From Pyrinomonadaceae bacterium (GTDB lineage: Bacteria > Acidobacteriota > Blastocatellia > Pyrinomonadales > Pyrinomonadaceae), in the NCBI GenBank assembly GCA_041745575.1, contig JBGTIQ010000069.1:29480-53479 (forward strand): a stretch of DNA of 24,000 nt, written 5' to 3'. The translations under genes were made by a program, and so were the position numbers. How positions within the stretch are numbered: the stretch's first letter is position 1; the number at the start of each line of letters is the position of its first letter. The notes beneath the pieces are model-generated. The model worked only from the letters and a program-made list of their open reading frames with translations, made no database searches and was not told the origin of the DNA. This document shows positions 3,070-20,561 of this stretch, piece after piece.

Positions 3070-3131
3070 GAAGCTCCTCTCCTTGTTTAGGAGGGTGGCA
3101 ACCGCTTTTCGGGTGACGGGGTGGTAGCCCT

Positions 3132-3219
3132 GTCAGAACCGCGAGCGGTAGCGACCGGGTTTCCCCTAGTTACCTCAAACGCCGCGGGTAACCCGGTCGC
3201 TACCGATCGCGGTTCTGAC
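3132..3219. repeat. 88-bp hairpin element: 29-bp inverted repeat (1 mismatch) with a 30-nt loop
   Basis: GTCAGAACCGCGAGCGGTAGCGACCGGGT (3132-3160) against ACCCGGTCGCTACCGATCGCGGTTCTGAC (3191-3219). It sits in the divergent intergenic region between the membrane-protein gene and the GltD-like gene. Confidence 0.9.
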
Positions 3220-3309
3220 TTCAGCCGATGACTCGGCCACAACTAGTAAACAACGAGGTGAGCTTTTCGTCGAATAACTGATTGAAGTTACCGTCGAAAG
3301 ATATTATTT

Positions 3310-5286
3310 TTGATTAGCGCTCTGCAGCGAGTATCATTTGTTGTCGAACGAGCAAGGACGAACTTCGTGAAACCAACAAACATCAACGATCCCGAATATT
3401 TCCATAAAGTGGTGGATTGCCAGTACGCGTGTCCGGCTCATACACCGGTGCCGGAATACATCCGCCTAATCGCCGAAGGTAAATATACCGAGGCGTACAT
3501 GATCAACTGGGATTCGAATGTGTTTCCGGGGATTCTTGGGCGAACGTGCGATCGGCCGTGCGAACCGGCATGCCGACGCGGAAGAATCGACGAAGAGCCG
3601 GTCGCGATCTGTCGCCTGAAGCGCGTTGCGGCTGACAACAAGGACGAGGTCAAACACCTCATGCCGCAAGCGCCGTTCAAACCGAACGGCAAGAAGGTCG
3701 CGTTGATCGGTGCCGGTCCCGCTTCGTTGACCGTCGCACGCGATCTGGCGCCGCTTGGTTACGAGATCCATCTTTTCGACGAGCAGTACAAGGGCGGCGG
3801 ATTTATGCTCAGTCAGATCCCGGCGTTTCGTTTGCCGGAAACAGTGCTCGACGAAGAAGTGAATTACATCCTCGACATGGGGATCCACACGCATTTCAAA
3901 CATTATGTCTCGTCGTTGAAAGAGGTGCTCGAACAGGATTACGACGCGGTCTTCGTCGGCACGGGAGCGCCGCGTGGACGCGAGCTAAAAATTCCCGGCC
4001 GCGAAGAGGGTGCGGCGAATATTCATATCGGCATTAACTGGCTCGGCAGCGTCGCGTTCGAGCATACGACCAAGATCGGCAAAACAGTCATCGTGCTCGG
4101 CGGCGGAAACACGGCGATGGACTGCTGCCGCACCGCGCGTCGGCTCGGCGGTGAAGACGTCAAGGTGATCGTCCGCTCCCCGTTCGCCGAGATGAAAGCG
4201 TCGCCGTGGGAAAAAGAAGACGCACAACACGAAGACATCCCGATCATCGACAACCACGTCCCGAAATCGTTTGTGATCGAGTATGAGGATGATGAACCGC
4301 AGAGTCGCCGAGACGCAGAGGCCGGAAAGGCGGAAACCCGACCGGTAGGGAGGGTGTCCGGTGGCTCCGAAGTGACGCAGCCCAAACGTAAAGGCCGTCT
4401 AATGGGCGTGATGTTCGAAAAGGTAAAAGCCGTCCACGACGAGAACGGAAAACGTTCGCTTGTCCCGACCGGCGAGCCCGAGGTTTTCTTCCCCGCGGAC
4501 GACGTCCTCGTCGCGATCGGACAAGAGAATTCATTCCCGTGGATCGAGCGCAACATCGGCCTTGATTTCGACAAATGGGAAATGCCGATCGTCGATAAGA
4601 CGACGTTCCAATCGACGAATCCGAAAGTTTTCTTCGGCGGCGACGCAGCGTTCGGTCCCGAGAATGTAATTACTGCCGTCGCTCACGGCCACCAGGCCGC
4701 GGTGTCGATAGACCTCCTTTGCAACAAAAAGAATCTATTGACCGAGCGACTTCATCCGATGGTCAATCTCGTCTCGCAGAAGATGGGCATTCACGAATGG
4801 GCCTACGACAGCGAGATCGACGAATACGATCGTCTGGTCGTGCCGCAAGCACCGAAAACGAAGACACTCGTCAATCGCAAACAGGAAGTCGAGATGGGAT
4901 TCGACCGGCTCGCGGGTTTCAAAGAAGCGGAGCGTTGTTTGAACTGCGATGTGCAGACTGTCTTCGACGGGCCAAAGTGTATCGAGTGCGACGCCTGCGT
5001 CGACATCTGCCCGACCGCCTGCATCACCTTCACCGCGAACGGTTCGGAAGAAGATCTCCGCGCACGCGCGAAAGTTCCCGCCTTAAATCTCACGCAGGAC
5101 CTCTACGTCTCCGAGCCGCTTATTCAAACAAAGCGAATCATGGTGAAGGACGAGGACGTCTGCCTGCACTGCGGCCTCTGCGCCGAACGCTGCCCGACCG
5201 CCGCCTGGGACATGCAAAAATTTTGGTACAACGTAACGAAGGCCGGCGAGGTCAAGTACGGGTGTGATGGGAATGGGGAAGGCTAG
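3310..5286 (+). CDS. GltD-family NAD(P)H-dependent Fe-S flavoprotein oxidoreductase with a C-terminal 2x[4Fe-4S] ferredoxin domain (start uncertain: TTG 3310 or GTG 3367)
   Basis: An N-terminal Cys-rich Fe-S segment (CQYACPAHTPVPEYI, CDRPCEPACRRG) typical of glutamate synthase small subunit / DPD-like proteins. Two dinucleotide folds (VALIGAGPASL, VIVLGGGNTAMD). Two CxxCxxCxxxCP motifs (CIECDACVDICP, CLHCGLCAERCP). Confidence 0.85.
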   Translation: MISALQRVSFVVERARTNFVKPTNINDPEYFHKVVDCQYACPAHTPVPEYIRLIAEGKYTEAYMINWDSNVFPGILGRTCDRPCEPACRRGRIDEEPVAICRLKRVAADNKDEVKHLMPQAPFKPNGKKVALIGAGPASLTVARDLAPLGYEIHLFDEQYKGGGFMLSQIPAFRLPETVLDEEVNYILDMGIHTHFKHYVSSLKEVLEQDYDAVFVGTGAPRGRELKIPGREEGAANIHIGINWLGSVAFEHTTKIGKTVIVLGGGNTAMDCCRTARRLGGEDVKVIVRSPFAEMKASPWEKEDAQHEDIPIIDNHVPKSFVIEYEDDEPQSRRDAEAGKAETRPVGRVSGGSEVTQPKRKGRLMGVMFEKVKAVHDENGKRSLVPTGEPEVFFPADDVLVAIGQENSFPWIERNIGLDFDKWEMPIVDKTTFQSTNPKVFFGGDAAFGPENVITAVAHGHQAAVSIDLLCNKKNLLTERLHPMVNLVSQKMGIHEWAYDSEIDEYDRLVVPQAPKTKTLVNRKQEVEMGFDRLAGFKEAERCLNCDVQTVFDGPKCIECDACVDICPTACITFTANGSEEDLRARAKVPALNLTQDLYVSEPLIQTKRIMVKDEDVCLHCGLCAERCPTAAWDMQKFWYNVTKAGEVKYGCDGNGEG

Positions 5287-5298
5287 TTGCGGCTACGA

Positions 5299-5895
5299 AT
5301 GCAGCGTGCACCTAAAGTAATTGTCCTGACTCTCGGAATTGCCTTCGCAGCGGCGACAGGTTGCAGCCGCGTTTCATTGGAAGACGCGAACAACCTCAAT
5401 TCTGCTCATGTCGCAGAACCGATGGTTGAGCCATCGAAACTCAGCCCAGCGGATCTATCGAAACTTCAGAAATATGCCGAAGCATACCAACCGAAATCGG
5501 GCCGTGTGGTAATTCCCGAAGTGCCCGTTCCAAATGAAGAGATTTCGCAAATAATTTCGAAGGCTGCCGATGCTGGCACGCGGGAGCACGAAAAGTTCGT
5601 CGTGCTGATTTTCCTTCGACTCTCGCGATTTCAGATCGAGAATTTCAGACAACGTTACGAGCTAGGACGCACCAACCCACTAACAAAAGAGTTTTATAGA
5701 CTGGTCGGACAGAACGACTACGAAAGGGCCGAAATGATGTCGGTATATTTGGCGGACGATTATATTGACAAAAACCCGCATCTTCGGGACTACAAGTTGA
5801 TCGATGCCGAAATGAAAAGGATCGCCAAGGCTGGTGAAAGGATTAAGCAGGAGTTAGACAGGACAACGAAACGAGCAAAGCAATCGCGTAACTAA
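5299..5895 (+). CDS. Putative lipoprotein, function unknown (ATG 5299; the ORF opens at TTG 5287)
   Basis: Signal peptide with a lipobox-like motif (LTLGIAFAAATGC). It starts directly after the upstream stop codon (5284-5286). I recognise no family. Confidence 0.6.
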   Translation: MQRAPKVIVLTLGIAFAAATGCSRVSLEDANNLNSAHVAEPMVEPSKLSPADLSKLQKYAEAYQPKSGRVVIPEVPVPNEEISQIISKAADAGTREHEKFVVLIFLRLSRFQIENFRQRYELGRTNPLTKEFYRLVGQNDYERAEMMSVYLADDYIDKNPHLRDYKLIDAEMKRIAKAGERIKQELDRTTKRAKQSRN

Positions 5896-6762: not shown

Positions 6763-6812
6763 ATTAAGAACGATTCGAGGCGCACGGCAGCTAGGTGACG
6801 TACTATTTTGAA

Positions 6813-7141
6813 CCGCCGCGTCAGCGGCGAACTGAGTTTAGCCGTGGCCTTCAGGCCACGGTAATCTCGAGCATTTGATTTCGTCGCGTCAGCGACGATT
6901 GAGTCAAATGCCGATTCATACCGTCGCTACGCGACGGGCGCTTTGTTATCGGCTGACCGTGGCCTGAAGGCCACGGCTAAATTCATTTGCCCGCTACGCG
7001 GTCGATGCGGGCTATGACTCAGACAATTGTCGGCGCTAAAGAAATTGAAATGTTGACTGCGTCGCGTCAGCGATAACGTGAATTTAGCTGTGAGGCCACG
7101 GTTTTTTCGAAATATTGTAATCTCCGTCGCGTCAGCGACGG
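6813..7141. repeat. REP cluster 2 (full composite unit 6813-7001 plus a degenerate extra unit 7059-7141)
   Basis: 6834-7001 is nearly identical (about 7 mismatches by eye) to 5986-6153. The degenerate copy has GAATTTAGCTGTGAGGCCACGG and ends with the hairpin CCGTCGCGTCAGCGACGG, 18 nt before the RAYT start. Confidence 0.85.
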
Positions 7142-7158
7142 CTGAACCATCTCCCAAT

Positions 7159-7609
7159 ATGGCAAACACATTCTCCCAACTCTTTTATCACCTTGTCTTC
7201 AGCACGAAGGCCCGACAAAAACTGATCACTCAGGAAATCGAATCTCGCGTGTGGGCGTACATCGGCGGCGTCGCTCGTAAACATGAATTAGCCGCGTTGC
7301 AAGTGGGCGGAATCGAAGATCACATCCACGGTCTCGTAATGGCACGGCCGGTAATCGCTCCATATCAAATCCCACAATGGCTAAAGGGCGACTCATCCAA
7401 ATGGATACATGGGGAATTTCCTGCAATGAGCAAATTTTATTGGCAAGACGGATACGGAATATTCTCGGTGAGCAGATCGCAAGTTCCCGATGTGATTCGA
7501 TATCGAAAATCAACGCGAACATCACGCCCGACAGACGTTCGAGGAGGAATACGTGTCCCTATTAAAATTGCACGGGATCGAATATGACGAGCGGTTTATT
7601 TTCGATTGA
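7159..7609 (+). pseudogene. REP-associated tyrosine transposase (RAYT; IS200/IS605 Y1 HUH family) with a 2-nt frameshift
   Basis: MANTFSQLFYHLVFSTK..., with HUH motif DHIHGLV. After ...SQVPDVIRY the frame is lost. The shifted frame from 7502 reads IENQREHHARQTFEEEYVSLLKLHGIEYDERFIFD and stops at 7607-7609, colinear with the intact paralogue at 14580-15032. DNA here is CGATATCGA where the paralogue has CGATATATCGA. Confidence 0.85.
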
Positions 7610-7614
7610 TGCAA

Positions 7615-7800
7615 CCGCCGCGTCAGCGGCGAAATGAGTTTAGCCGTGGCCTTCAGGTCACGTTAATTCATGATATTCGATTTCGTCGCGTCAGCGACGA
7701 TTGAACTATTCGCCATTTCAACCGTCGCTACGCGACGTATCCGATCTCGTTCGTACCGTGGCCTGAAGGCCACGGCTAAATTCATTTGCCCGCTACGCGG
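7615..7800. repeat. REP cluster 3 (composite unit, same orientation as clusters 1 and 2)
   Basis: The same module order as cluster 2 (CCGCCGCGTCAGCGGCG ... TTTAGCCGTGGCCTTCAGGTCACG ... CGTCGCGTCAGCGACG ... CCGTCGCTACGCGACG ... CCGTGGCCTGAAGGCCACGGCTAAATTCATTTGCCCGCTACGCGG). The hairpins are conserved and the spacers have diverged. Confidence 0.85.
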
Positions 7801-7907
7801 TCACTAATACGTTATGATCGCTCTCCCAGAAGACTGATCGCTTTTATCCTACACCTTACGAAGGCTGTACTTGCCATCTCCTCGAACCATCTTCATCCTA
7901 AATACAA

Positions 7908-9380
7908 ATGTCTGATCAATACGATCTCATCGTTATAGGAGGCGGATCGGCGGGGCTCGTCGCCGCCGGCGGGGCCGCGATCCTTGGAGCAAAGGTCGCT
8001 CTCGTTGAGCGCGATCGCCTCGGCGGTGATTGTCTTTATTCGGGGTGTGTTCCATCGAAAACCTTTATTCGTTCGGCGAAGTTTGCACACGAGATGCGCA
8101 ATGCGGATGGATACGGGTTTGAATCTTCGGAGGCGCGATTCCTCAACGATTCGTTCGCATCCGTTATCGAGCGCGTACAGCGCGTGATCGGCGTTGTCGA
8201 AAAGCGCGACGCACCCGAAGTGTTCGAAGAAATGGGCGTCGAGGTTATATTCGGAACCGCGAAATTCACAAGCCCGTACGAGATCGAAGTGGCCATGGAA
8301 GGAGGCAAATCAAAAACGCTAAAGGGAAAGCGGTTCTGCATCTCAACTGGTTCGCGGCCGTTTACGCCGCCGATCGACGGGCTCGAGCAGACTGGCTACA
8401 TCACAAACGAAGATGTCTTTCATATAAAGGCTCTGCCGAAGCGGCTCGTCGTTCTCGGTGGCGGCGCTATCGGCGTTGAGCTTGGCCAGGCGTTCGCACG
8501 TTTCGGATCGGATGTGACGATCGTCGAGATGGGCGACAGGATATTGTCGAAAGAAGAAACCGATGTGTCGTCGTCGATGGAGCAGATATTGAAAGCGGAA
8601 GGCCTGACAATTCTGACCGGTACTAAAGCTATCCGCGCCGCAAAGACCGAGAGCGGTGCCAAGTCGATCACAGTCGAATCGTCGGGGAAAGAGAAAACGA
8701 TTGAGGCTGACGAGATACTCGCCGCCGTCGGCCGCAAGCCGAACATCGACGATCTCGATCTGAAACGCGCAGGAGTCGAATTCGACGAGAAACAGGTCAA
8801 GACGAACGGCCTTCTCCAAACCTCGCAGAAACACATCTACGCCGCCGGCGACGTAACCGGTCACTTTCAGTTCACGCATATGGCCGATTACGAAGCTCGG
8901 ATCGTCATACAGAACGCTTTCGTCCCTTGGCCTTTCAAAAAGAAGGTAGATTTTCGAGTCGTGCCCTGGGCGACGTTTTCCGATCCCGAGATCGGCCGCG
9001 TCGGGATGACCGAGGCGGAGGCGCGAAAGAAGTTTGGCGAGGATGTCGCGATCCACGTGGTCCCACTCGATGCGAATGACCGCGCTCAGGCGAGCGGTTC
9101 GACGGACGGTTTTGTAAAGGTCGTTTCCCACCGTGGTCGGATCGTCGGTGCGACAATTGTCGCGAGCCACGCCGGCGAACTCATTCATGAATATGTCTGG
9201 GCCGTAAAAAACCGGCTCAAGGTCGCGCATCTCAACGAGATCATCCGCGTCTATCCGACGCTGTCAAAGATCACGCAAGAGGTCGGAACCGAGGCGACGC
9301 TCAAGACGTTGAAATCGCCGTTCGTCCAGAGATGGTTCGCGAGATACCTACGTGTCTGGCGCCGGGCGGTCGGATCGTGA
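7908..9380 (+). CDS. Class I pyridine nucleotide-disulfide oxidoreductase (dihydrolipoamide dehydrogenase / mercuric reductase-like), 490 aa
   Basis: FAD fold VIGGGSAG. Redox-active CxxxxC (GGDCLYSGCVPSK). NAD fold VVLGGGAIGVE. C-terminal dimerisation-domain His/Glu (SHAGELIHE). Confidence 0.85.
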   Translation: MSDQYDLIVIGGGSAGLVAAGGAAILGAKVALVERDRLGGDCLYSGCVPSKTFIRSAKFAHEMRNADGYGFESSEARFLNDSFASVIERVQRVIGVVEKRDAPEVFEEMGVEVIFGTAKFTSPYEIEVAMEGGKSKTLKGKRFCISTGSRPFTPPIDGLEQTGYITNEDVFHIKALPKRLVVLGGGAIGVELGQAFARFGSDVTIVEMGDRILSKEETDVSSSMEQILKAEGLTILTGTKAIRAAKTESGAKSITVESSGKEKTIEADEILAAVGRKPNIDDLDLKRAGVEFDEKQVKTNGLLQTSQKHIYAAGDVTGHFQFTHMADYEARIVIQNAFVPWPFKKKVDFRVVPWATFSDPEIGRVGMTEAEARKKFGEDVAIHVVPLDANDRAQASGSTDGFVKVVSHRGRIVGATIVASHAGELIHEYVWAVKNRLKVAHLNEIIRVYPTLSKITQEVGTEATLKTLKSPFVQRWFARYLRVWRRAVGS

Positions 9381-9403
9381 TCCATACGGAAAAAGAAGAG
9401 GGC

Positions 9404-10093
9404 GTGCGTCCCGTAATCATCGTGATGGCAAAGGTACCTCGAACGGGTGCCGTGAAAACGCGTCTCCAGCCGTTCCTCACCGCTGAACAATGTGCGAGCC
9501 TTGCCGAAGCATTCTTGAAAGACACGGTGCGGATGGCTGCGAGTATCTGCGATGACGTGATAGTCGCCTTTGATCCACCGAACGGGCGTGACGAGATCGA
9601 ACAAATTGTCGGCCCCGACGTGTCACTGATCCCACAGAATGGAACGGGGCTTGGCGAACGGCTCGACGGTGCGGTGCAGGAAATCGCGGATCTGAATTTT
9701 AGCCCCGTCCTCATTATCGGTACCGATAGCCCGACGCTGCCTTACGAGTTTCTCATCGATGCGATTGCGGCATTCGGCGAACCCGACACGGACCTTGTTC
9801 TCGGTGGCACAGAGGATGGCGGATATTATTTGATCGCGATGCGCGAGCAGATTCCTGGAATCTTCGATGAAATCCGTTGGAGTTCCGAGCACGTCTATCG
9901 AGACACGCTTGAGAGAGCTCAAACGCTCGGGCTAACACGTATAACCGAGCTTCCGCGTTGGTACGATGTCGATAATCCGCCGGACCTTGTCCGCATCCAA
10001 GAAGAGTTCGCAACCGACGAGTCACTCGCATCCCGGTGTCCGGACACCCACGCGTGGCTTGAAGAAAATCGCCTGAGTTTCGACGAGAGTTAA
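9404..10093 (+). CDS. DUF2064-type nucleotidyl/glycosyl-transferase-like protein (TIGR04282-like, the 'arsenosugar/rSAM-associated transferase 1' family as I recall it); alternative GTG start 9377 overlaps the upstream stop as GTGA
   Basis: N-terminus VRPVIIVMAKVPRTGAVKTRLQP... and the ...GTDSP... motif are typical of DUF2064. GAAGAGGG precedes the GTG at 9404. The ORF opens at 9332 inside the upstream gene. Confidence 0.7.
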   Translation: MRPVIIVMAKVPRTGAVKTRLQPFLTAEQCASLAEAFLKDTVRMAASICDDVIVAFDPPNGRDEIEQIVGPDVSLIPQNGTGLGERLDGAVQEIADLNFSPVLIIGTDSPTLPYEFLIDAIAAFGEPDTDLVLGGTEDGGYYLIAMREQIPGIFDEIRWSSEHVYRDTLERAQTLGLTRITELPRWYDVDNPPDLVRIQEEFATDESLASRCPDTHAWLEENRLSFDES

Positions 10094-10791
10094 TCGGGCG
10101 GTTTGGACGACCGCACAGGTTGATAGAGGTTGGCGAGACTGTCAGGGTGCACGCCGCACCAGAAAAGCACCTGAAGAAAAGACCATCGGGCAAACATCAT
10201 GGGAAAGCTGCGTCCCTCGAACCTTCGAGACGATGTGACCACTTTCGCTTCTAATGTTTTGAATTCTCCCTCGCGTCTGAGGCGATGAAGTAGATCGAGG
10301 TCCTCGAAAAGCGGTAGCGGTTTGAAGCCGCCGACCTTTTCGTAAACTCCCCGGCGGACAAAGATGCCCGAGTCCCCATACGCAAGACCGAGCCGGCCAA
10401 GCTTCGGATAAAGCCAACTCATAAAGCGTGCCGGCCGAGATATGCCGTCGAAGACGATCGTAAAATTGCCTCCGACTACAGACGCATCGGTCAGAGCATT
10501 CATCATCTGATCAACCGCGTCGTCGTCGGGAATCGTATCGGCGTGAACGAACCAGAGCACGCCTCCGGCCGCAGCATCTGCTCCAGCTCTAAGCTGAGCT
10601 CCTCGTCCTTTTTTTGAATGCACGACCCGTGCGCCGTGCTTCATGGCGATATCTGCGGTTCCATCGGAACTTTCTCCGTCTGCGACAATGATCTCCGCAT
10701 CCGGGCAACACCGCTGCAACGACTCGATCGTCGAGCGCAAGGAACGCTCCTCGTTGAACGTCGGGATTATTATCGATACCGTCGGAACCAA
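10090..10791 (-). CDS. Family 2 glycosyltransferase (TIGR04283-like, 'transferase 2' of the same system as I recall it), TTG start
   Basis: VSIIIPTFNEERSL... and ...ADGESSDGT... are GT2 signatures. A GAGGAG SD lies 5 nt upstream of the TTG. It follows the hydroxylase stop after a 16-nt gap. Confidence 0.8.
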   Translation of the reverse strand: MVPTVSIIIPTFNEERSLRSTIESLQRCCPDAEIIVADGESSDGTADIAMKHGARVVHSKKGRGAQLRAGADAAAGGVLWFVHADTIPDDDAVDQMMNALTDASVVGGNFTIVFDGISRPARFMSWLYPKLGRLGLAYGDSGIFVRRGVYEKVGGFKPLPLFEDLDLLHRLRREGEFKTLEAKVVTSSRRFEGRSFPMMFARWSFLQVLFWCGVHPDSLANLYQPVRSSKPPD

Positions 10792-10807
10792 AATATCTCC
10801 TCGTTGT

Positions 10808-11620
10808 TCAATTATCTGATGACGGGGTTGAACCTGAGTGGAAAGGAAGGGCGAGGATCGACTTCAAACCGACGTCGACCGCGAGATCGTCCCCTGGAGC
10901 TCCGATAACGATCGAACTTTGCGGGACGTCGGTCCGTATCGTGCCGTGCAAACGATCCCAGATCGTAAGCCCGCTCGACCAATTCGAGTCTGTTTCAGAA
11001 ACTTCGACTGAATGATGGATGCCGTGCAGCCGCGGCGTCATGATCAGCGAGCTTAACTTATTTTCGACTTGGAGCGGCAGCCTGAGATTGGAGTGGTGAA
11101 AAAGGATCGAGGGCAAAAGGAACGCCTGCCAGGCCTTGAAAGACGACGTTGAAACTCCGATGACGACGATCTGCGCCGATCTCCACACGATCGAGATCAA
11201 CAACTCGCCAAAGTGAAATCGGAGAGCGGTCGACGCGTCGAGGTCGCGGTCGGCGTGATGGACGACGTGAAATCGCCAAAGAAAAGGGACCTTATGCGTC
11301 AGCACGTGCCAGATGTACAGCGTGTAATCGAGCAAGATAACCGCCGCCGCGGCTTCAACCCATTTCGGAAGCGGCACGAGCTTTAAGATACCGACCTGAT
11401 GTTTCTCGACCCATCTCGTCAACCGATCCGTTATCGGCCTTTCAACCAGATAAAGAGAGCACGCAGCCAAGCCCGCGATGGCGAGATTTCTGCCGGTGCG
11501 TGTGGTTGTCGATTCGACAGGCTTTCGCAGCGGGCGTCGTCTCTCCATCACGACAAGCACCGCAAGTGCACCAATAGCCACGGGAACCGACAATGCCTTT
11601 ATTAATTTTGCGACGCCCAT
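10808..11620 (-). CDS. Fatty acid hydroxylase / sterol desaturase superfamily membrane di-iron enzyme (start taken at ATG 11620; the ORF opens at 11662)
   Basis: Histidine boxes HVLTH, HVVHH and HGIHH, with several TM segments. The ATG at 11618-11620 lies 1 nt after the arsS stop (11622-11624). Confidence 0.8.
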   Translation of the reverse strand: MGVAKLIKALSVPVAIGALAVLVVMERRRPLRKPVESTTTRTGRNLAIAGLAACSLYLVERPITDRLTRWVEKHQVGILKLVPLPKWVEAAAAVILLDYTLYIWHVLTHKVPFLWRFHVVHHADRDLDASTALRFHFGELLISIVWRSAQIVVIGVSTSSFKAWQAFLLPSILFHHSNLRLPLQVENKLSSLIMTPRLHGIHHSVEVSETDSNWSSGLTIWDRLHGTIRTDVPQSSIVIGAPGDDLAVDVGLKSILALPFHSGSTPSSDN

Positions 11621-11621
11621 T

Positions 11622-12629
11622 CTATGCTCCTGCAACCGCACCGCCGCACGACGAACCTGCACCGGCCGTGCAGCCGAAACAATGCTCGGCGGTCGTCACA
11701 TGTCGATTCTCGAGCTCCGCCATTTCGAAATCGAAGATCGTCTGCGGCCTGCCGCTCTCGATCGGCAGATCGAGCATCTGATTGAAATCGCAATCGTATA
11801 GTTTTCCGTTCCAGTCGACGCTGATCAGATTCCGGCACATCAATCCGGCAACCGTCTCTGGATTGAAGGCCGCAACAAGCTTTCGCATGTAAGATTCGGC
11901 GTTGCCCGATCGGTGCAGCCATTCGTCGAATCGGGCGATCGGCATGTTCGTGATCGTGAATAGATTGTCGAACACGATCTCGTAACGAGCACTCAGCTCG
12001 TGTTTGAAATCGGCTTCGATCGCGGCTTGCGGCGGCGGGAGAAAAGCTCCGACGGGATTATAGACAAGATCCAGCGTCAGATGTGCCTGACGTCCATACC
12101 CGACATCATTCAGCCGTCGAAGTGCCGAGATCGACTTGTCGAATACGCCGCGACCGCGCTGCGCGTCGGTCTGCTGCGCGAGAAAATACGGGAGACTCGA
12201 AACAAGAGCCACCTCGTTGCGGGCAAAAAACTCCGGAAGATCTTCGTGACCCGATTCGTGCATCACCGTCAGGTTATGTCGAACCATGACCTTCGCCCCG
12301 ATGCGCCGCGCCTCGGTTACGAGATATCGAAAATCGGGGATCAGCTCAGGTGCTCCGCCCGTGACGTCGAGCGTCGGGATCCGGTTTTTTTCTAATACCT
12401 GCAAACATGCGTCGACGACCTCGCGTCCCATGATCTCGGTCCGCGTCGGCGATGCGTCGACATGACAGTGCTTGCACGCCTGATTACACAATTTCCCGAC
12501 GTTGATCTGCAGCGTGCTGATCTCGTTCGAGCGAAGGACGCCGGTGTCGAGGTGATCGGCGAACGATCTCCGAGACGGAGCCATACGTGTTGTGCTTTCG
12601 CGTGGTATCTGAATCGTAGCAGTCGTCAT
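11622..12629 (-). CDS. arsS: Radical SAM / Cys-rich C-terminal domain protein, ArsS-like (arsenosugar biosynthesis radical SAM family, TIGR04167-like)
   Basis: CX3CX2C motif (CNQACKHC) near the N-terminus and a C-terminal Cys cluster (CFGCTAGAGSSCGG). It is translationally coupled to the upstream gene (TAAATG junction at 12627-12632) and sits next to an ArsM-like gene. Confidence 0.8.
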   Translation of the reverse strand: MTTATIQIPRESTTRMAPSRRSFADHLDTGVLRSNEISTLQINVGKLCNQACKHCHVDASPTRTEIMGREVVDACLQVLEKNRIPTLDVTGGAPELIPDFRYLVTEARRIGAKVMVRHNLTVMHESGHEDLPEFFARNEVALVSSLPYFLAQQTDAQRGRGVFDKSISALRRLNDVGYGRQAHLTLDLVYNPVGAFLPPPQAAIEADFKHELSARYEIVFDNLFTITNMPIARFDEWLHRSGNAESYMRKLVAAFNPETVAGLMCRNLISVDWNGKLYDCDFNQMLDLPIESGRPQTIFDFEMAELENRHVTTAEHCFGCTAGAGSSCGGAVAGA

Positions 12630-12959
12630 TTACATCGAGACCTTGTCGTGTGCGTTGTGCGACTGAATTCCATGGATCAGGCTGGCACCGCCGCGGATAG
12701 CAGATGCGAGATGCATCGCCTCGGTCATCTGCTCCATATTCGATCCGTTCTCGAGGCTCGAATTGGTGAACGCCTCGATGCAGTACGGGCATTGGACCGT
12801 GACGGCGACAGCAAGGCCGATCAACGCCTTTTCCCGACGCGAAAGCGCTCCTTCTTCCTGACAGGCCTGGTACCACGCCATGAATTTCTCGAACAAATGC
12901 GGCTGGTATTTTGCGATGTCGCCAAAGCGTTCAAGATCGTCTTCGTTGTAGTAGTGCAT
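12630..12959 (-). CDS. AhpD/carboxymuconolactone decarboxylase-family 'peroxidase-like' protein (start taken at ATG 12959; the longer ORF to 12995 would overlap arsM by 28 nt)
   Basis: CxxC motif in the AhpD-like context (VQCPYCIEAF), ~110 aa. This family is, to my knowledge, a recurrent neighbour of ArsS/ArsM. Confidence 0.75.
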   Translation of the reverse strand: MHYYNEDDLERFGDIAKYQPHLFEKFMAWYQACQEEGALSRREKALIGLAVAVTVQCPYCIEAFTNSSLENGSNMEQMTEAMHLASAIRGGASLIHGIQSHNAHDKVSM

Positions 12960-12967
12960 ATCGTGTT

Positions 12968-14122
12968 TCAGCAACAGCCCGTGTCCGGATCGCACGACGC
13001 CGCACCCGAAAGATCGGTCACGGCGTAATCCATGCCCTTGGTCTCACGCGGATGACGCTTTGCGTTGCGGCGGCAGTCGAATTCAATTGCATCTTCCGCC
13101 GAAATCGGCTCACGCGGCTCGATGCCGATGATGTCATTCGCGTACGGCTCGCGCGTGTAGATCTCGAACGTCTTTTCGCAAACGGCCATTCGCGCTCCGC
13201 GTTCGAGGATGTGCCCGTCATCGTCGATCACCTTCTTCCACGGACCATTGTAGATGACGGCCTGATTCCCTTCCCTGCATTCGCCTTGCTTGCCCTTATA
13301 GGCGACGATCGTCACCGATCGAAACTCGATGCCCCCGACGACTCGCCACGGTTTTTCGTCGCGCTTGACGACCTGCATTCCGTAAAAGCCGGCTCGCTCA
13401 AACGCCTCGATGAACGCATCTTCTCTGAACGCACCCGATATACAGCCGGACCATAGCTCGGGATCGTTCTGCAGATGCTCGGGGACATCCTCGTCGGAAA
13501 CGATGTCCGCGATCGCGACACGGCCGCCGCGTTTGAGCACGCGGAACATCTCGGCAAACATCTGCTCTTTGTCCTCCGGTTTTACCAGATTAAGAACGCA
13601 GTTCGAGAGGATCACGTCAAGGGATGCGTCGGCCACGAGCGGCCGCTCGCTTTTCGCTTTGACGATGAACGTCTCGTAATCGAAGAGGTCCGCCGTCGTT
13701 TGCAGCGGTATGCGCGACAGATATTCTTCGACAAGCGTTAGATCGAGCCTGAGGTCCTGGATCCGGCCATACCGAAATTCCACATTGGCATAACCGATGC
13801 GATCCGCCATCTCATCGCGATATTTGTTTGCAAGCGCGAGCATCTCGGTATTCGTATCGACGCCGATAACGCGTCCCGACGCTCCGACGATCTGCGACGC
13901 GATATAGCAGATCTTCCCGCCACCCGAGCCTAGATCAAGTACGGTATCCCCGGACCTGACAAACTGTGACGGATCGCCGCAGCCGTAGTCCCGCTCGATG
14001 ATCTCGTCGGGCAGGATCTTTAGAAACTTAGGGTCGTACTCCACCGGACAGCAGAGCGCGTCTTCTTTAAGTTTTGCGGCGGCTCCGTACCGTTCGCGGA
14101 CCGCGGTCTCGATCTCATGCAT
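12968..14122 (-). CDS. arsM: Arsenite S-adenosylmethionine methyltransferase, ArsM-like (384 aa)
   Basis: SAM-binding motif VLDLGSGGG. Cysteines in the positions expected for ArsM (N-terminal ALCCPVEYD, YGCGDP, SNCVLNL, WSGCISGA). C-terminal domain ending in a Cys-rich tail (SCDPDTGCC). Confidence 0.85.
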   Translation of the reverse strand: MHEIETAVRERYGAAAKLKEDALCCPVEYDPKFLKILPDEIIERDYGCGDPSQFVRSGDTVLDLGSGGGKICYIASQIVGASGRVIGVDTNTEMLALANKYRDEMADRIGYANVEFRYGRIQDLRLDLTLVEEYLSRIPLQTTADLFDYETFIVKAKSERPLVADASLDVILSNCVLNLVKPEDKEQMFAEMFRVLKRGGRVAIADIVSDEDVPEHLQNDPELWSGCISGAFREDAFIEAFERAGFYGMQVVKRDEKPWRVVGGIEFRSVTIVAYKGKQGECREGNQAVIYNGPWKKVIDDDGHILERGARMAVCEKTFEIYTREPYANDIIGIEPREPISAEDAIEFDCRRNAKRHPRETKGMDYAVTDLSGAASCDPDTGCC

Positions 14123-14224
14123 ACGTCTATTATAGACGATGCTCGATCCGAATCTTTTTATTCCCCGGGACTTCTCTTCATAATAACCCGTCGAACGTAT
14201 CGATCGTCAGATACTGGCTTTCAT

Positions 14225-14257
14225 ATGCAGATCCACGACTTTGTAATTCGCTTTGCG
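14225..14257 (+). pseudogene. 33-bp relic of the korA 5' end (ATG + 10 codons: MQIHDFVIRFA)
   Basis: 29/33 nt identical to 20562-20594 (ATGAAGATCAACGACTTTGTAGTCCGCTTTGCG) on the same strand. Similarity stops abruptly after codon 11. Confidence 0.7.
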
Positions 14258-14394
14258 TCCAGCCTTCCTCTCCAACCTGATTTCTGTCATTTTTGTAATT
14301 CGACTATAAGTGTGGGCTCGTAAAGTTATTTGAGCTCGAGGATATGACGACTCCCACAAGTGACACTTCAACCACGCTCGGTTGGGATATAACT

Positions 14395-14433
14395 AACGGC
14401 TCTGCCGCTTGGTGTGCGCAGCCGTCTTGGAAG
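14395..14433. repeat. Copy 3 of the ~45-nt pre-REP motif
   Basis: AACGGCTCTGCCGCTTGGTGTGCGCAGCCGTCTTGGAAG. It lies ~60 nt upstream of REP cluster 4. Confidence 0.5.
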
Positions 14434-14492
14434 ATTTAGACTGAATCCCTCGTCTGCGCCAAGTTTATAATGGCGGTAGACGCTCGGAGGGT

Positions 14493-14573
14493 CGCGTAGC
14501 GGCCGCATGCATTTAGCCGTGGCCTTCAGGCCACGGTTTTTCGACGACAGAGGTCCTGCCGCGTCAGCGGTAG
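14493..14573. repeat. REP cluster 4 (variant REP, left flank of RAYT2)
   Basis: CGCGTAGCGGCCGCATGCATTTAGCCGTGGCCTTCAGGCCACGG plus the hairpin CTGCCGCGTCAGCGGTAG. It ends 7 nt before the RAYT2 stop. Confidence 0.85.
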
Positions 14574-14579
14574 TTGGAA

Positions 14580-15032
14580 TCAATCGAAAACGTATTGCAG
14601 GTCGTACTCGATACCATGCAGTCTCAGAAGCGAGATATATTCCTCTTCGAAGGTCTCGTTATAGTGATGCTCTCGCTGGTTCTCGATATATCGAATGACG
14701 TCGGGAACTTGTGATTTGCTTACGGAGAATATGCCGTAGCCGTCCTGCCAGCTGAAATCGCTCAGGTTCGGGAATTCGTCGTGAATCCACTTGGAGGAGC
14801 CACCTTTTAGCCACATTGGAATCTTACACGGAGGAACGACCGGCTTCGCCATAACAAGTCCGTGAACATGATTCTCGATACCGCCAACTCTCAAAGAAGT
14901 TACGTCGTGTTTCCGCGCGATTCCGCCCATGTAGTCCCAAACACGTTCTTCGATCTCTTGGTGAATAAAGTTACGCCGTTCTTTTGTACTAAAGACAATG
15001 TGGTAGAAGAGCTGGGAGTACGTGTTTGCCAT
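14580..15032 (-). CDS. REP-associated tyrosine transposase (RAYT), intact, 150 aa
   Basis: MANTYSQLFYHIVFSTK..., HUH motif NHVHGLV, and the C-terminal catalytic-Tyr motif RYIENQREHH. It is flanked by REPs in inverted orientation. By-eye identity to the 7159-7609 copy is roughly 70 percent. Confidence 0.9.
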   Translation of the reverse strand: MANTYSQLFYHIVFSTKERRNFIHQEIEERVWDYMGGIARKHDVTSLRVGGIENHVHGLVMAKPVVPPCKIPMWLKGGSSKWIHDEFPNLSDFSWQDGYGIFSVSKSQVPDVIRYIENQREHHYNETFEEEYISLLRLHGIEYDLQYVFD

Positions 15033-15051
15033 CGTCGCAGATTCCGTTCAT

Positions 15052-15134
15052 CTGCCGCTGACGCGGCAGAATCACTGTGATACTTTGACCGTGGCCTAAA
15101 AGGCCACGGCTAAATGCGTGCGGCCGCTACGCGG
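15052..15134. repeat. REP cluster 5 (variant REP, right flank of RAYT2; reverse complement of cluster 4)
   Basis: CTGCCGCTGACGCGGCAG plus CCGTGGCCTAAAAGGCCACGGCTAAATGCGTGCGGCCGCTACGCGG. Confidence 0.85.
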
Positions 15135-15310
15135 CTGCGAAGCCATTCGCATTGAATTGCCGCTATTTTAAGCCCGGGGAAGCGTAGACGTCTTTAATTT
15201 TTCTTAATCGTTCGGAACACAGGGATGCGTGCACACCACTGATAAGGCGGACGACAATTATCGAAGATCGCTTTGTTTCAAGGGCACTTTCGGTTAATCC
15301 TACATAGAGC

Positions 15311-16768
15311 ATGGAACACCTCGACGTTCTAATTGTTGGTGCGGGCCTCTCAGGTATAGGAGCTGCATGTCAGCTCAGCATGGCGTGTCCGCAGAAGAGC
15401 TTCGCGATACTCGAAGGACGGGATGCGATGGGCGGGACGTGGGACCTGTTTCGCTACCCGGGAGTTCGTTCAGATTCCGACATGTACACGCTCGGTTACA
15501 GATTTCGGCCGTGGCGTAACGCCAAGGCGATCGCCGACGGGCCGGCCATCCTCAACTACATCCGTGACACGGCCGGTGAATTCGGCGTCGATAAAAAGAT
15601 CCGGTACGGGTACCGGGCAAAGACAGCGTCATGGTCATCCTACGACGCTCTCTGGACGGTCGAAACGCTGACGAGCACCGGAACAAAAACTCTCACCTGC
15701 AACTTTCTATATCTCTGCACTGGTTATTACGATTACGAGAATGGATACACGCCCGAATGGCCCGGGGTCGAACAATTTCGTGGACAGATCATTCATCCAC
15801 AGAAGTGGCCCAAAGATTTGGACTATGAAAATAAACGAGTCATCGTGATAGGCAGCGGGGCGACCGCCGTCACGCTCGTACCCGCGATGGCCGAGACCGC
15901 GGAACATGTCACGATGCTTCAGCGTTCGCCGACGTACATCATGACGCTTCCGGCTGAGGATCGCATCGCGAACTTTCTCCGCCGCATCTTTCCTGAGCGC
16001 GCGTCGTATGCCGTGACGCGCTGGAAGAATGTCATGCTCCAGATGTTCTTCTACGTCCTCTCACGGAGGCGGCCCGCGACGATGAAGCGTCTGATCGCGA
16101 AAGGTGTGCGGACCGAACTCGGAGAGGGATATGACATCGCGCACTTTACTCCATCGTATGACCCGTGGGATCAGCGACTGTGTCTCGTGCCCGACTCAGA
16201 TCTTTTTCGGGTGATTCGTGACGGGCGTGCATCTATGGTGACCGATCAGATTGTGACCTTCACCGAGACGGGGCTGCAGCTAAAATCGGGAAGGCATATC
16301 GAAGCGGATATTATCGTCACAGCGACGGGTCTCAACCTCAAACTTATGGCGGGACTTCAGCTGGTCGTCGACGATGAGCCGGTGGATATGTCGAAGACGA
16401 TGGCTTACAAAGGAATGATGTACAGCGACGTTCCCAATCTCGCGTCGGCTTTTGGCTACACCAACGCATCGTGGACATTGAAGTGCGATCTTACCGCGGA
16501 GTACGTCTGCCGTATGCTGAACTACATGGACCGATATGGATTCGCACGGTGCACTCCGCGGCTGAACGATCCTTCGGTAAGACCCGAGCGCGTATTGGAT
16601 TTCACCTCAGGTTACGTCGAGCGGGCGCTTCACACATTGCCGAGTCAGGGTTCGAAAACGCCGTGGCGTTTACATCAGAACTACATCAAGGATCTTTCAA
16701 TGCTGCGATACGGCCGCGTCGCCGACGGCACCATGGAATTCGAGAAGCAAAAAAGACCGTCCGGATAG
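15311..16768 (+). CDS. Flavin-dependent Baeyer-Villiger-type monooxygenase (EthA/FMO-like), 485 aa
   Basis: FAD fold VGAGLSG. BVMO fingerprint FxGxxxHxxxWP (FRGQIIHPQKWP). Second dinucleotide fold VIGSGATA. Confidence 0.85.
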   Translation: MEHLDVLIVGAGLSGIGAACQLSMACPQKSFAILEGRDAMGGTWDLFRYPGVRSDSDMYTLGYRFRPWRNAKAIADGPAILNYIRDTAGEFGVDKKIRYGYRAKTASWSSYDALWTVETLTSTGTKTLTCNFLYLCTGYYDYENGYTPEWPGVEQFRGQIIHPQKWPKDLDYENKRVIVIGSGATAVTLVPAMAETAEHVTMLQRSPTYIMTLPAEDRIANFLRRIFPERASYAVTRWKNVMLQMFFYVLSRRRPATMKRLIAKGVRTELGEGYDIAHFTPSYDPWDQRLCLVPDSDLFRVIRDGRASMVTDQIVTFTETGLQLKSGRHIEADIIVTATGLNLKLMAGLQLVVDDEPVDMSKTMAYKGMMYSDVPNLASAFGYTNASWTLKCDLTAEYVCRMLNYMDRYGFARCTPRLNDPSVRPERVLDFTSGYVERALHTLPSQGSKTPWRLHQNYIKDLSMLRYGRVADGTMEFEKQKRPSG

Positions 16769-16821
16769 GGACAACTACTCGAACAAAACCGATCGTACGT
16801 CAGGTGAAATAGCCTTGCCTT

Positions 16822-17235
16822 TCAAACCGTGTCTGGACGCCCATCGTCACCGAGAAACTCTTGCATCCGAACGGCGATAGCTGCCGCTCGCTCCTTGAGA
16901 TAGTCCGCACGCTCACCTGCAAAATTTTCATCGATCGTTATGGAAAAGATCTCGAGCCATCGCCGGAAATGGTCGGCGGTCAAGGCCAGTTTTTCGTGTA
17001 GCTCTTTGTGAACGAGTAGTGGGTTCCGACCGTGAATAGAATATGCAGGCGTCCCGAACAGCAGGCTCTCCCAAAAATCGCCGATGATCGGCAAATGATG
17101 TTCGAGATCGAGCTTTGCGACATCGGTGAATATGAATCCGATGACATCGTCAACCAGCACGCGTTCATAGAACACCTGCATTAGGCGGTCGATGTCATCC
17201 CTGGTTGCGATATCGTCCACAGTGTCTAGCTCCAT
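16822..17235 (-). CDS. Group III truncated haemoglobin-like globin (start taken at ATG 17235; the ORF opens at 17346 but that extension runs through a hairpin repeat)
   Basis: ~137 aa with the pattern IDRLMQVFYERVLVD..IG.IF...DLEHHLP.IGDFWES.LFG...Y.G.P...H, which I recognise as trHb group III-like. It lies directly downstream of norB on the same strand. Confidence 0.7.
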   Translation of the reverse strand: MELDTVDDIATRDDIDRLMQVFYERVLVDDVIGFIFTDVAKLDLEHHLPIIGDFWESLLFGTPAYSIHGRNPLLVHKELHEKLALTADHFRRWLEIFSITIDENFAGERADYLKERAAAIAVRMQEFLGDDGRPDTV

Positions 17236-17278
17236 GCGTTCGTAGATTTCCGGATCCGCAGGCGGATCACACCAATAC

Positions 17279-17340
17279 AACAGGGATGAAGGGGATGAAC
17301 GGAATACATGAAGAATCCCATCATCCCCTTCATCCCTGTT
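17279..17340. repeat. Perfect 20-bp inverted repeat with a 22-nt loop, arms built of GGGATGA-type heptamers
   Basis: AACAGGGATGAAGGGGATGA (17279-17298) against TCATCCCCTTCATCCCTGTT (17321-17340). It starts 8 nt after the norB stop codon. Confidence 0.9.
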
Positions 17341-17347
17341 AATCAAA

Positions 17348-19591: not shown

Positions 19592-19639
19592 TTTGGTCCT
19601 CGGACAGCGTGAAAAAGCGGAGGCGCTTGTGTGCCCATT

Positions 19640-19669
19640 TATATACTGAGTTGGAATACACTAGTCCAA
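19640..19669 (-). promoter_or_regulatory. Candidate norB promoter (TTGGAC-N18-TATATA on the minus strand)
   Basis: The -10 complement is at 19640-19645 and the -35 complement at 19664-19669, ~50 nt upstream of the norB ATG. Sequence inspection only. Confidence 0.3.
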
Positions 19670-19685
19670 AGACTCTGCCGGCGTC

Positions 19686-19701
19686 TGTGTGTTACGTCAC
19701 A
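19686..19701. promoter_or_regulatory. CRP/FNR-family type palindromic site TGTGT-N6-TCACA in the norB upstream region
   Basis: TGTGTgttacgTCACA matches the TGTGA-N6-TCACA class of sites used by CRP/FNR-family regulators (including HcpR-type nitrosative-stress regulators). It is centred ~100 nt upstream of the norB ATG. Confidence 0.35.
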
Positions 19702-19722
19702 AAGGGCGGGCTTTTTCGCATC

Positions 19723-19751
19723 TTCACATTTCGCCGATGACGCACTATCAT
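19723..19751 (+). promoter_or_regulatory. Candidate plus-strand promoter TTCACA-N17-TATCAT (would drive the korA relic, TA cassette and korA)
   Basis: Hexamers at 19723-19728 and 19746-19751 with a 17-nt spacer. Sequence inspection only. Confidence 0.3.
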
Positions 19752-19845
19752 TGTCGATAACGATCAAGCCTTCACTAAAAACGCAGCTTATAGAAATATG
19801 AAAGACGGCTCTGTCCGTGAAAATGCTCGCGGGTCGAAAGATGTT

Positions 19846-19953
19846 ATAAAGATCAACCACCTCGTCGTCCGGTTTGCGAATGTCAACGGCACCGGTTCGG
19901 CGTCGGTGAATGCGCTGTTTACAAAAGCAGTGTTTCGCATGGGCGTGCCCGTT
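19846..19953 (+). pseudogene. Relic copy of korA codons 1-36 (start codon mutated ATG->ATA), truncated by a repeat half-site
   Basis: 19849-19953 aligns with 20565-20669 with 8 mismatches in 105 nt (IKINHLVVRFANVNGTGSASVNALFTKAVFRMGVPV vs MKINDFVVRFANVNGTGSASANALFTKAVFRMGVPV). Homology ends at 19953. Confidence 0.85.
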
Positions 19954-19956
19954 CGG

Positions 19957-19983
19957 GTCAGAACAGGGTGCGGTAGCGACTGG
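19957..19983. repeat. Single arm (half-copy) of the 3132-3219 hairpin element
   Basis: GTCAGAACAGGGTGCGGTAGCGACTGG against GTCAGAACCGCGAGCGGTAGCGACCGG (22/27 identical). No matching second arm follows. Confidence 0.65.
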
Positions 19984-20031
19984 ATTCTCACACGACTGCC
20001 GGTGTTATAATTGCGAGGGAGGAAAGTAGAT

Positions 20032-20549: not shown

Positions 20550-20561
20550 CCCACTTTGATG

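Follow-up and report, generated by a model that had tools for sequence, protein, structure and literature searches.

An ArsS-centred arsenosugar-type gene cluster of a Pyrinomonadaceae bacterium and its association with a membrane hydroxylase and a flavoprotein disulfide reductase

ArsM and ArsS of Synechocystis sp. PCC 6803 constitute the known arsenosugar pathway, in which the ArsM family methylates As(III). To our knowledge, these two enzymes account only for an adenosyl-arsenical, while the later steps towards arsenosugars and arsenolipids, as well as the re-reduction of methylarsenicals, are unexplained. A second described system is a set of NCBIfam families that is defined by co-occurrence only (TIGR04167, TIGR04169, TIGR04282 and TIGR04283, formerly 'rSAM/selenodomain-associated'). 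Here, we analysed a stretch of 24,000 nucleotides (the window) from a Pyrinomonadaceae bacterium (assembly GCA_041745575.1, contig JBGTIQ010000069.1, positions 29,480-53,479), in which seven open reading frames (ORFs) at positions 7908-14122 form a cluster around an ArsS-type radical S-adenosylmethionine (SAM) protein. Besides an ArsM-like methyltransferase, an AhpD-like protein, a DUF2064 protein and a GT2 glycosyltransferase, this cluster encodes a membrane hydroxylase and a flavoprotein disulfide reductase (FDR).

As in Synechocystis sp. PCC 6803, an ArsM-type methyltransferase is encoded beside an ArsS protein with a CX3CX2C motif and a Cys-rich DUF3641 domain. In contrast to Synechocystis, the methyltransferase is not orthologous (126 bits against the cyanobacterial arsenosugar ArsM model NF038099, cut-off 400), the host is a soil member of the Acidobacteriota, and five further genes are present. 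The names of its homologues assign this host to the Acidobacteriota, in the vicinity of Pyrinomonadaceae. All four families of the NCBIfam set score above their cut-offs and sit in one tight cluster, with the TIGR04169, TIGR04282 and TIGR04283 genes at most 2.6 kb from ArsS. However, this set contains neither an FA_hydroxylase nor an FDR, whereas in the window both kinds of gene lie within the cluster or at its border, and their linkage recurs elsewhere. The initial annotation had placed these two enzymes outside the described core, and indeed they are found neither in the NCBIfam set nor in any described arsenosugar gene set.

That is, the core corresponds to the known ArsM/ArsS module plus the NCBIfam set, and the new part is the linkage of hydroxylase and FDR as well as a phosphorylase gene that adjoins ArsS in relatives. 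In the curated family libraries and in the papers searched, we found no description of an FA_hydroxylase subfamily systematically tied to ArsS and GT2, of a recurrent recruitment of MerA-like FDRs with Tyr for His and an amphipathic tail, or of a phosphorylase adjoining ArsS. The best explanation for the whole is an arsenosugar-type cluster extended by two accessory enzymes, which probably makes a membrane arsenosugar lipid; we assign a probability of about 0.5 to this reading.

The ArsS-centred core

Five genes are transcribed from the minus strand in the order ArsM-like methyltransferase (12968-14122, 384 amino acids, first gene of the operon), AhpD-like protein (12630-12959, 109 amino acids from an ATG, with an ORF start possible at 12995), ArsS (11622-12629, 335 amino acids), FA_hydroxylase-superfamily membrane di-iron hydroxylase/desaturase (10808-11620, 270 amino acids, or 284 with a GTG start at 11662) and GT2 glycosyltransferase (10090-10791, 233 amino acids). 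Based on the gene starts called on the identical public contig, the gaps between them are 8, 0, 1 and 16 bp in transcription order. On the plus strand, the ORFs of the FDR (7908-9380, 490 amino acids) and the DUF2064 protein (9332-10093, 253 amino acids) overlap by 49 bp, and the stop codons of the convergent DUF2064 and GT2 genes overlap by 4 bp. A five-gene minus-strand operon facing a plus-strand pair had been described in the initial annotation, and the seven ORFs were found exactly at the positions given there. Its statement that the window lacks arsR, arsB/acr3 and arsC also holds for the window ORFs of at least 120 amino acids, among which family scans detected none of these genes (shorter ORFs lay outside the scan).

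ArsS was called from its sequence motifs before, and hidden Markov model (HMM) searches place it above the NCBIfam equivalog cut-off (TIGR04167, 450 bits versus 300), with a DUF3641 domain at its C-terminus (PF12345, 194 bits). The protein carries CNQACKHC and the C-terminal Cys-rich stretch HCFGCTAGAGSSCGG. In an alignment of 45 diverse homologues, C48, C52 and C55 (the CX3CX2C motif) as well as C265, C280, C317 and C320 were invariant. The family comprises 616 clusters at 50% identity (E <= 1e-30), and among ten long homologues five are fused to an ArsM-type methyltransferase and one (P0182) to a CMD domain. For ArsS enzymes from elsewhere, the reaction of a 5'-deoxyadenosyl radical with the trivalent dimethylated arsenical DMAs(III) to 5'-deoxy-5'-dimethylarsinoyl-adenosine has been reported (PMC13598754).

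Which genes accompany ArsS was analysed in a census of 80 loci, which came from species-representative genomes across many phyla and were retrieved with an alignment of diverse ArsS sequences and then searched by tblastn with the seven window proteins in flanks of 10 kb on either side of ArsS. The AhpD-like gene was the commonest neighbour (52 of the 80 genomes), followed by ArsM (24/80), DUF2064 (17/80) and GT2 (14/80). The AhpD/CMD-fold protein of the window, with the motif QCPYC, scores 152 bits with TIGR04169 ('arsenosugar biosynthesis-associated peroxidase-like', cut-off 120), and QCPYCIDA is at least 90% conserved among 49 ArsS-adjacent homologues. A fusion of ArsM and AhpD even constitutes an NCBIfam family of its own (NF041537). 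Since the AhpD-like protein is the commonest neighbour of ArsS, keeps its CPYC motif and occurs fused to ArsS and to ArsM, we infer that it works directly with both.

The other two members of the association set are equally clear by their family scores. The DUF2064 protein, whose family match starts at residue 29, reaches 170 bits with TIGR04282 (cut-off 134), and its CofC-like nucleotidyl-transferase fold is reflected in matches to CofC (50 bits) and to PDB entry 3cgx ('putative nucleotide-diphospho-sugar transferase', 95 bits). GT2 scores 211 bits with TIGR04283 (cut-off 182), and its weak PDB matches are to GpgS (glucosyl-3-phosphoglycerate synthase) and dolichyl-phosphate mannose synthase; polyprenyl-phosphate glycosyltransferases and glucosyl-3-phosphoglycerate synthase are among its distant relatives. 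Thus, the AhpD-like, DUF2064 and GT2 identities proposed earlier are all supported by curated cut-offs. The view that these three families are known by association likewise stands: they carry 'arsenosugar biosynthesis' names at NCBI, and no paper on their chemistry was found. When the literature on ArsS was searched together with glycosyltransferase, hydroxylase, arsenolipid or the TIGR families, nothing on the accessory genes was found; one review and one soil survey name the arsenosugar-associated families and add nothing further.

The methyltransferase required a closer look. Its best model was the arsinothricin-type ArsM (NF040538) with 350 bits, below the cut-off of 500, followed by PRK11873/NF008823 with 194 bits (cut-off 263), and it shows the class I SAM fold (Methyltransf_31, 92 bits). 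Its motifs YGCG, SNCV and SGC align with Cys72, Cys174 and Cys224 of CmArsM (structures 4fr0 and 4kw7), and long ArsM proteins of this type (434-626 bits) are encoded next to ArsS in loci of Pyrinomonadales, of Planctomycetota and elsewhere. Because the cysteine triad is kept and the gene is linked to ArsS, the protein is predicted to be an As(III) SAM methyltransferase of the ArsM family, though not the orthologue of the cyanobacterial enzyme. The ArsM-like call of the initial annotation therefore stands with regard to the As(III)-binding cysteines and the linkage to ArsS, but no curated ArsM cut-off is reached. In an 88% identical relative (locus L002, 7499-8651), the ArsM gene reads as two overlapping parts, covering residues 1-83 and 80-384, owing to a frameshift or to an error in the assembly; gene calling there gives only a 280-amino-acid product. 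Taken as a whole, the cluster very probably encodes an ArsS-type organoarsenical pathway.

Beyond the seven families, an ORF resembling PiT-type phosphate transporters was recognised by eye inside ArsM-ArsS loci of seven genomes (L006 at 8407-9546, L014, L028, L032, L046, L050 and L057), mostly of Nitrospira, with one from Pyrinomonadales and one from Planctomycetota. This PiT-like transporter may feed the pathway by importing arsenate.

The membrane hydroxylase and the disulfide reductase

The hydroxylase is a clear member of its Pfam family (PF04116, 79.6 bits versus a cut-off of 31), with at least three hydrophobic segments and the invariant His boxes WHVLTH, FHVVHH, FHHSN and HGIHHS (HxxxH, HxxHH, HH and HxxHH). 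It thereby shares the family, the full set of His boxes and the multi-pass membrane character with OlsE and with the sphingolipid, sterol, carotenoid and alkylglycerol oxygenases. OlsE (NF052566) is its nearest and only curated NCBIfam relative. In contrast to OlsE itself, however, the hydroxylase scores 72 bits against a cut-off of 475, and it belongs to a subfamily that is delimited by linkage to ArsS and GT2. A search of the PDB with its sequence gave no match, and the family libraries scanned hold no arsenic-specific curated model that matches either the hydroxylase or the reductase.

To approach the linkage from the hydroxylase side, we used 80 metagenome loci that encode relatives of 50-63% identity. 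At least one cluster gene was present in 18 of the 37 loci with a total flank of 3 kb or more. This linkage spans two phyla and takes at least five gene orders, among them ArsM-hydroxylase-GT2-AhpD-ArsS, the order of the window itself (ArsM-AhpD-ArsS-hydroxylase-GT2), hydroxylase-GT2 followed by DUF2064 on the opposite strand and AhpD-ArsS, and FDR-ArsS with a divergent hydroxylase gene; loci L122 and L161 add two more. The most constant feature was that GT2 directly follows the hydroxylase gene, as in 21 of the 57 informative hydroxylase loci. The conserved linkage of hydroxylase and ArsS on which the initial annotation depended is thus borne out in roughly half of the loci that are informative.

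In a neighbour-joining tree, linked and unlinked hydroxylases were intermixed, and the Pedobacter sequence, which falls outside all other relatives, is linked as well. From this topology, the whole subfamily looks ancestrally tied to ArsS clusters. The intermixing rules out that linked and unlinked members are separate paralogue clades, and the unlinked members are best read as parts of split clusters. When the neighbours of the unlinked hydroxylases were clustered, no recurrent partner was found, apart from three near-identical contigs. On balance, the hydroxylase probably belongs to the organoarsenical pathway.

The FDR consists of Pyr_redox_2 and Pyr_redox_dim domains and carries the CxxxxC motif in GGDCLYSGC. 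It remains below the cut-offs of its best family (NF004991, PRK06370 'FAD-containing oxidoreductase', 490 bits versus 620) as well as of Lpd (TIGR01350, 394 versus 409) and MerA (TIGR02053, 383 versus 454); an ArsS-adjacent homologue from locus L071 passes the NF004991 cut-off with 735 bits. The best PDB match is MerA (5x1y), with which the FDR shares the group-1 fold, the CxxxxC motif and a Tyr in place of the catalytic His. Lpd and glutathione reductase have His-Pro at this site, and YPTLSK of the FDR aligns with HPTYTE of the Lpd entry 6uzi in the PDB. Unlike MerA, it has neither an N-terminal extension (no NmerA domain) nor a C-terminal Cys-Cys pair (C-terminus RYLRVWRRAVGS), and it ends in an additional amphipathic tail with the highest helical hydrophobic moment of the protein (muH 0.77). 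CxxxxC, Tyr-Pro and this tail (SPFVQRWFARYLRVWR) are conserved in 11 FDRs that are linked to ArsS or to the hydroxylase and come from three phyla (Acidobacteriota, Bacteroidota and Planctomycetota).

Five FDR homologues of 65-70% identity on long contigs were sampled for their surroundings. One belongs to a complete ArsS cluster (L167) and one to a stress locus (L166), and the other three have unrelated contexts. In L166 (7001-9891), AhpC/Redoxin and CMD genes come after the gene of the 70% identical homologue, and genes for rhodanese/beta-lactamase-fold, DUF302, FMN_red and ArsR-type HTH proteins lie around it. This context is one of thiol, persulfide or peroxide stress, and its neighbours point to thiol redox chemistry. 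The arrangement resembles the mycobacterial Lpd-AhpD-AhpC relay: an Lpd-like flavoprotein is clustered with an AhpD-fold CxxC protein, and the 70% homologue sits beside AhpC and CMD. The AhpD-like partner in the window differs from AhpD, however, in that Phe instead of the AhpD His follows CPYC.

Since its homologues occur in such scattered contexts, the FDR is a more general, probably membrane-associated redox enzyme that was repeatedly recruited and is not an obligate member of the cluster. A conserved FDR-ArsS linkage is consequently supported only in part: it spans three phyla, but it is facultative and holds for one of the five close homologues. Whether the FDR takes part in the pathway we regard as evenly balanced. 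Two narrower roles were discarded. It is not strictly the reductase of the AhpD-like protein, because loci without an AhpD-like gene exist, and not strictly the electron donor of the hydroxylase, because loci without a hydroxylase exist.

Some loci with FDR genes hold further proteins. L167, a contig of Pyrinomonadaceae type, holds a cluster that is otherwise identical but has additional SnoaL_2 and DinB_2 genes (11726-12892) between ArsS, AhpD and ArsM; enzymes with a DinB fold frequently depend on thiols. Directly beside the FDR gene, L166 (6633-6953), L167 (6588-6923), L168 (6614-6958) and L074 (8194-8511) encode a small protein (about 105-114 amino acids) whose sequence, judged by eye, contains about three hydrophobic segments that are likely to span the membrane. 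It is 58% identical between Acidobacteriota and Chryseolinea, and the L074 copy has no Pfam or NCBIfam match. The window lacks this gene, and a transposase unit occupies the upstream position. In L161, a membrane protein with VTT/DedA and DUF547 domains (9071-11086, minus strand) is encoded immediately upstream of the reductase gene, and the locus holds ArsM, ArsS, DUF2064, GT2 and the hydroxylase. In L122, an 813-amino-acid protein (2906-5347, minus strand) joins a radical SAM/SPASM domain, only about 26% identical to ArsS, to an ArsM-like methyltransferase. The locus also encodes the FDR, the hydroxylase, DUF2064 and GT2, along with another flavoprotein of the Pyr_redox_2/Pyr_redox_dim type (454 amino acids). 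L122 may represent a variant pathway.

The ArsS census contributed further informative arrangements. In the cultured Pedobacter sp. JCM 36344 (Bacteroidota, L060), the genes AhpD-ArsS-DUF2064-GT2-FDR-hydroxylase lie on one strand; its four core proteins all exceed the curated cut-offs, and its hydroxylase scores 62 bits with the OlsE model. Chryseolinea (L074) has the order AhpD-ArsS-phosphorylase-DUF2064-GT2-FDR, and in a metagenome-assembled genome of the Planctomycetota (L071) the FDR gene is directly upstream of ArsS. The hydroxylase is present in three Pyrinomonadaceae genomes of this census. The phosphorylase is a purine-nucleoside phosphorylase (NF006054, 336 bits versus a cut-off of 218) that adjoins ArsS in three Bacteroidota loci, namely L074 (4583-5407, between ArsS and DUF2064), L044 (11521-12336) and L045 (1931-2719).

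Proposed route and competing explanations

A route through the cluster can be proposed from these assignments. By the established chemistry of its family, ArsM would convert As(III) to DMAs(III), which ArsS would combine with the 5'-deoxyadenosyl radical to 5'-deoxy-5'-dimethylarsinoyl-adenosine, as judged from the activity of other ArsS enzymes. The AhpD-like CPYC protein may assist through its thiols in handling or protecting either the trivalent arsenical or the cysteines of the enzymes. Adenine would then be removed by phosphorolysis to give arsenoribose-1-phosphate, a step that we propose because of the purine-nucleoside phosphorylase adjoining ArsS in the three Bacteroidota loci; here, it would fall to a housekeeping enzyme. 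The hopanoid side-chain pathway offers a parallel, since radical SAM adenosylation (HpnH) is followed there by adenine removal (HpnG), leaving a ribosyl unit. The likeness is one of workings only: ArsS is not HpnH (TIGR03470, 20-26 bits), the acceptor is arsenic and not hopene, and the window holds no phosphorylase. The DUF2064 protein, by its nucleotidyl-transferase fold, could activate arsenoribose-1-phosphate to a nucleoside diphosphate (NDP) sugar, and GT2 could transfer the NDP-activated arsenosugar to an acceptor.

For the last steps, the two accessory enzymes come into play. All members of the FA_hydroxylase superfamily known to us act on lipids, and the genes of the hydroxylase and GT2 are closely coupled. 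We therefore suggest that the hydroxylase makes or modifies a lipid aglycone and that the product probably is a membrane-bound arsenosugar lipid, although for the lipid nature of the product taken by itself our confidence stays slightly below even. The membrane-associating FDR might pass reducing power from NAD(P)H to a dithiol and so keep arsenic trivalent or the cysteines of the CPYC protein and ArsM reduced. This is the least certain step, with the CPYC protein, the ArsM cysteines and pentavalent methylarsenicals as candidate acceptors; given the MerA-like Tyr, a metal or metalloid is a likelier substrate than a disulfide. Both a lipid-linked product and a thiol-dependent As(V)/As(III) recycling, at which the hydroxylase and the reductase had originally been taken to hint, remain plausible as hypotheses. 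A bolder version would have the hydroxylase build the aglycone of an undescribed membrane arsenosugar lipid in soil Acidobacteriota and Bacteroidota, with the FDR as the NAD(P)H-dependent reductase that converts DMAs(V) to DMAs(III) for ArsS. We know of no bacterial gene assigned to the reduction of pentavalent methylated arsenicals, and we regard this full combination as speculative and quite improbable.

Several observations weigh against the extended arsenosugar cluster as the explanation. The methyltransferase falls below every curated ArsM cut-off, and no phosphorylase is encoded in the window. From the ArsS side, hydroxylase and FDR are minority accessories (4/80 and, counting convincing cases, 3/80 loci), and about half of the well-flanked hydroxylase relatives have no nearby cluster gene. 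Four of the five sampled FDR homologues lie outside ArsS clusters, so that the FDR may be a general redox enzyme. It also lacks the His-Glu dyad used in disulfide exchange and occurs without an AhpD-like gene (in the hydroxylase-linked arrangement D and in L071). The evidence for a lipid product comes only from the family and the membrane character of the hydroxylase. Finally, a literature search found no product chemistry for TIGR04282, TIGR04283, TIGR04169, the hydroxylase or the reductase.

The scarcity of hydroxylase and FDR at most ArsS loci would be expected if the cluster made only a soluble arsenosugar or adenosyl-arsenical for detoxification, with five functional core genes. The hydroxylase and especially the FDR would then be bystanders with jobs in lipid remodelling and in general thiol or oxidative-stress defence, which also fits the three of five close FDR homologues in unrelated contexts, the one in a peroxiredoxin/CMD stress locus, and the hydroxylase relatives on long flanks of which roughly half have no arsenic gene nearby. 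However, the other half of these 50-63% identical hydroxylases lie within a few kb of ArsS-cluster genes, far above chance, and their linkage has outlasted at least five rearrangements and crosses phyla. In the window, moreover, the hydroxylase gene lies within the operon, with gaps of 1 bp to the preceding ArsS gene and 16 bp to the following GT2 gene, and the linkage of the FDR recurs independently in three phyla. We therefore consider two mere bystanders unlikely.

Another way to account for both enzymes is to join them into a two-component monooxygenase, in which the FDR passes electrons from NAD(P)H to the di-iron centre and has no direct role towards arsenic or thiols, modelled on rubredoxin reductase with AlkB and on cytochrome b5 reductase with the eukaryotic family members. 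The two genes are neighbours or lie close together in L060, L123, L139, L122, L161 and arrangement D, and the FDR has a conserved amphipathic C-terminal helix and, in other loci, a conserved small neighbour with three transmembrane stretches. As far as we know the family, di-iron membrane hydroxylases require an external electron donor. On the other hand, L071 and L074 have the FDR with ArsS but no hydroxylase, and arrangements A and C as well as L003 have the hydroxylase with ArsS but no FDR. The CxxxxC dithiol is invariant, which speaks for thiol chemistry; ferredoxin, rubredoxin and b5 are not encoded in the cluster, and we know of no group-1 disulfide reductase that feeds a di-iron centre directly. 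A dedicated electron-transfer pair thus appears doubtful. Much less probable than either of these alternatives is a system that does not act on arsenic at all. The missing arsenic resistance and regulatory genes among the scanned ORFs, the methyltransferase scores and the selenoproteins among the ArsS and AhpD-like families would suit another metalloid (Se or Sb) or a non-metalloid substrate and a methyltransferase that does not act on arsenite. Yet ArsS exceeds its equivalog cut-off by 150 bits, the three As(III)-binding cysteines are kept in the methyltransferase, fusions of ArsS and ArsM are common, and ORFs resembling PiT-type phosphate/arsenate transporters accompany ArsM and ArsS in seven other loci. 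A non-arsenic function is accordingly very unlikely, and the arsenosugar-type cluster with two accessory enzymes remains our preferred explanation.

Surrounding DNA and wider occurrence

The cluster is bracketed by two IS200-like Y1 transposase genes of the REP-associated type in inverted orientation. The first (7078-7587, plus strand; NF033573 70 bits, PF01797 87 bits) looks degenerate at its C-terminus, and the second lies at 14580-15032 on the minus strand (NF033573 73 bits, PF01797 95 bits). The two genes are 71% identical and form an inverted repeat (I1) of 355 nt at 71%. REP-like hairpin repeats (TTTAGCCGTGGCCTTCAGGCCACGG) surround the first copy (6811-7003 and 7613-7802) and the second (14486-14564 and 15089-15136); 6811-7003 is also a further solo REP pair, and the arrangement is REP/RAYT-style. 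L002 has the same seven genes without the transposase units, and there POR directly abuts ArsM. In the window, ArsM and POR are separated by about 6.4 kb of DNA that this relative lacks (14123-20555 in the window versus 5455-7499 in L002). It holds the second transposase, an FMO gene (15311-16768), a globin-like protein (16822-17346), a qNOR-type NorB (17348-19591) and an unassigned ORF of 369 amino acids. The FMO, on the plus strand, was considered as ArsO and ruled out (64 bits versus a cut-off of 425); it is also weakly similar to Baeyer-Villiger-type enzymes.

Apart from the cluster, the window encodes this NorB and the globin-like protein, POR, a sigma/anti-sigma pair and an Fe-S flavoprotein. 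Near the cluster, an Rfam scan detected neither riboswitches nor regulatory RNAs; it returned only a tRNA at the left edge of the window (5-78, plus strand; RF00005, 67 bits). A scan that covers sigma-70-type promoters found one promoter-like site, below the count in shuffled sequence, and a terminator scan found 13 sites, near the shuffled mean.

For the later steps of arsenosugar and arsenolipid formation, the clusters described here provide candidate enzymes, namely the purine-nucleoside phosphorylase, the DUF2064 protein, GT2, the membrane hydroxylase, the CPYC thiol protein and the MerA-like flavoprotein. Several of them co-occur in the cultured Pedobacter sp. JCM 36344. Our findings suggest that arsenosugar-type chemistry, known mostly from work on algae and cyanobacteria, is widespread among soil bacteria.

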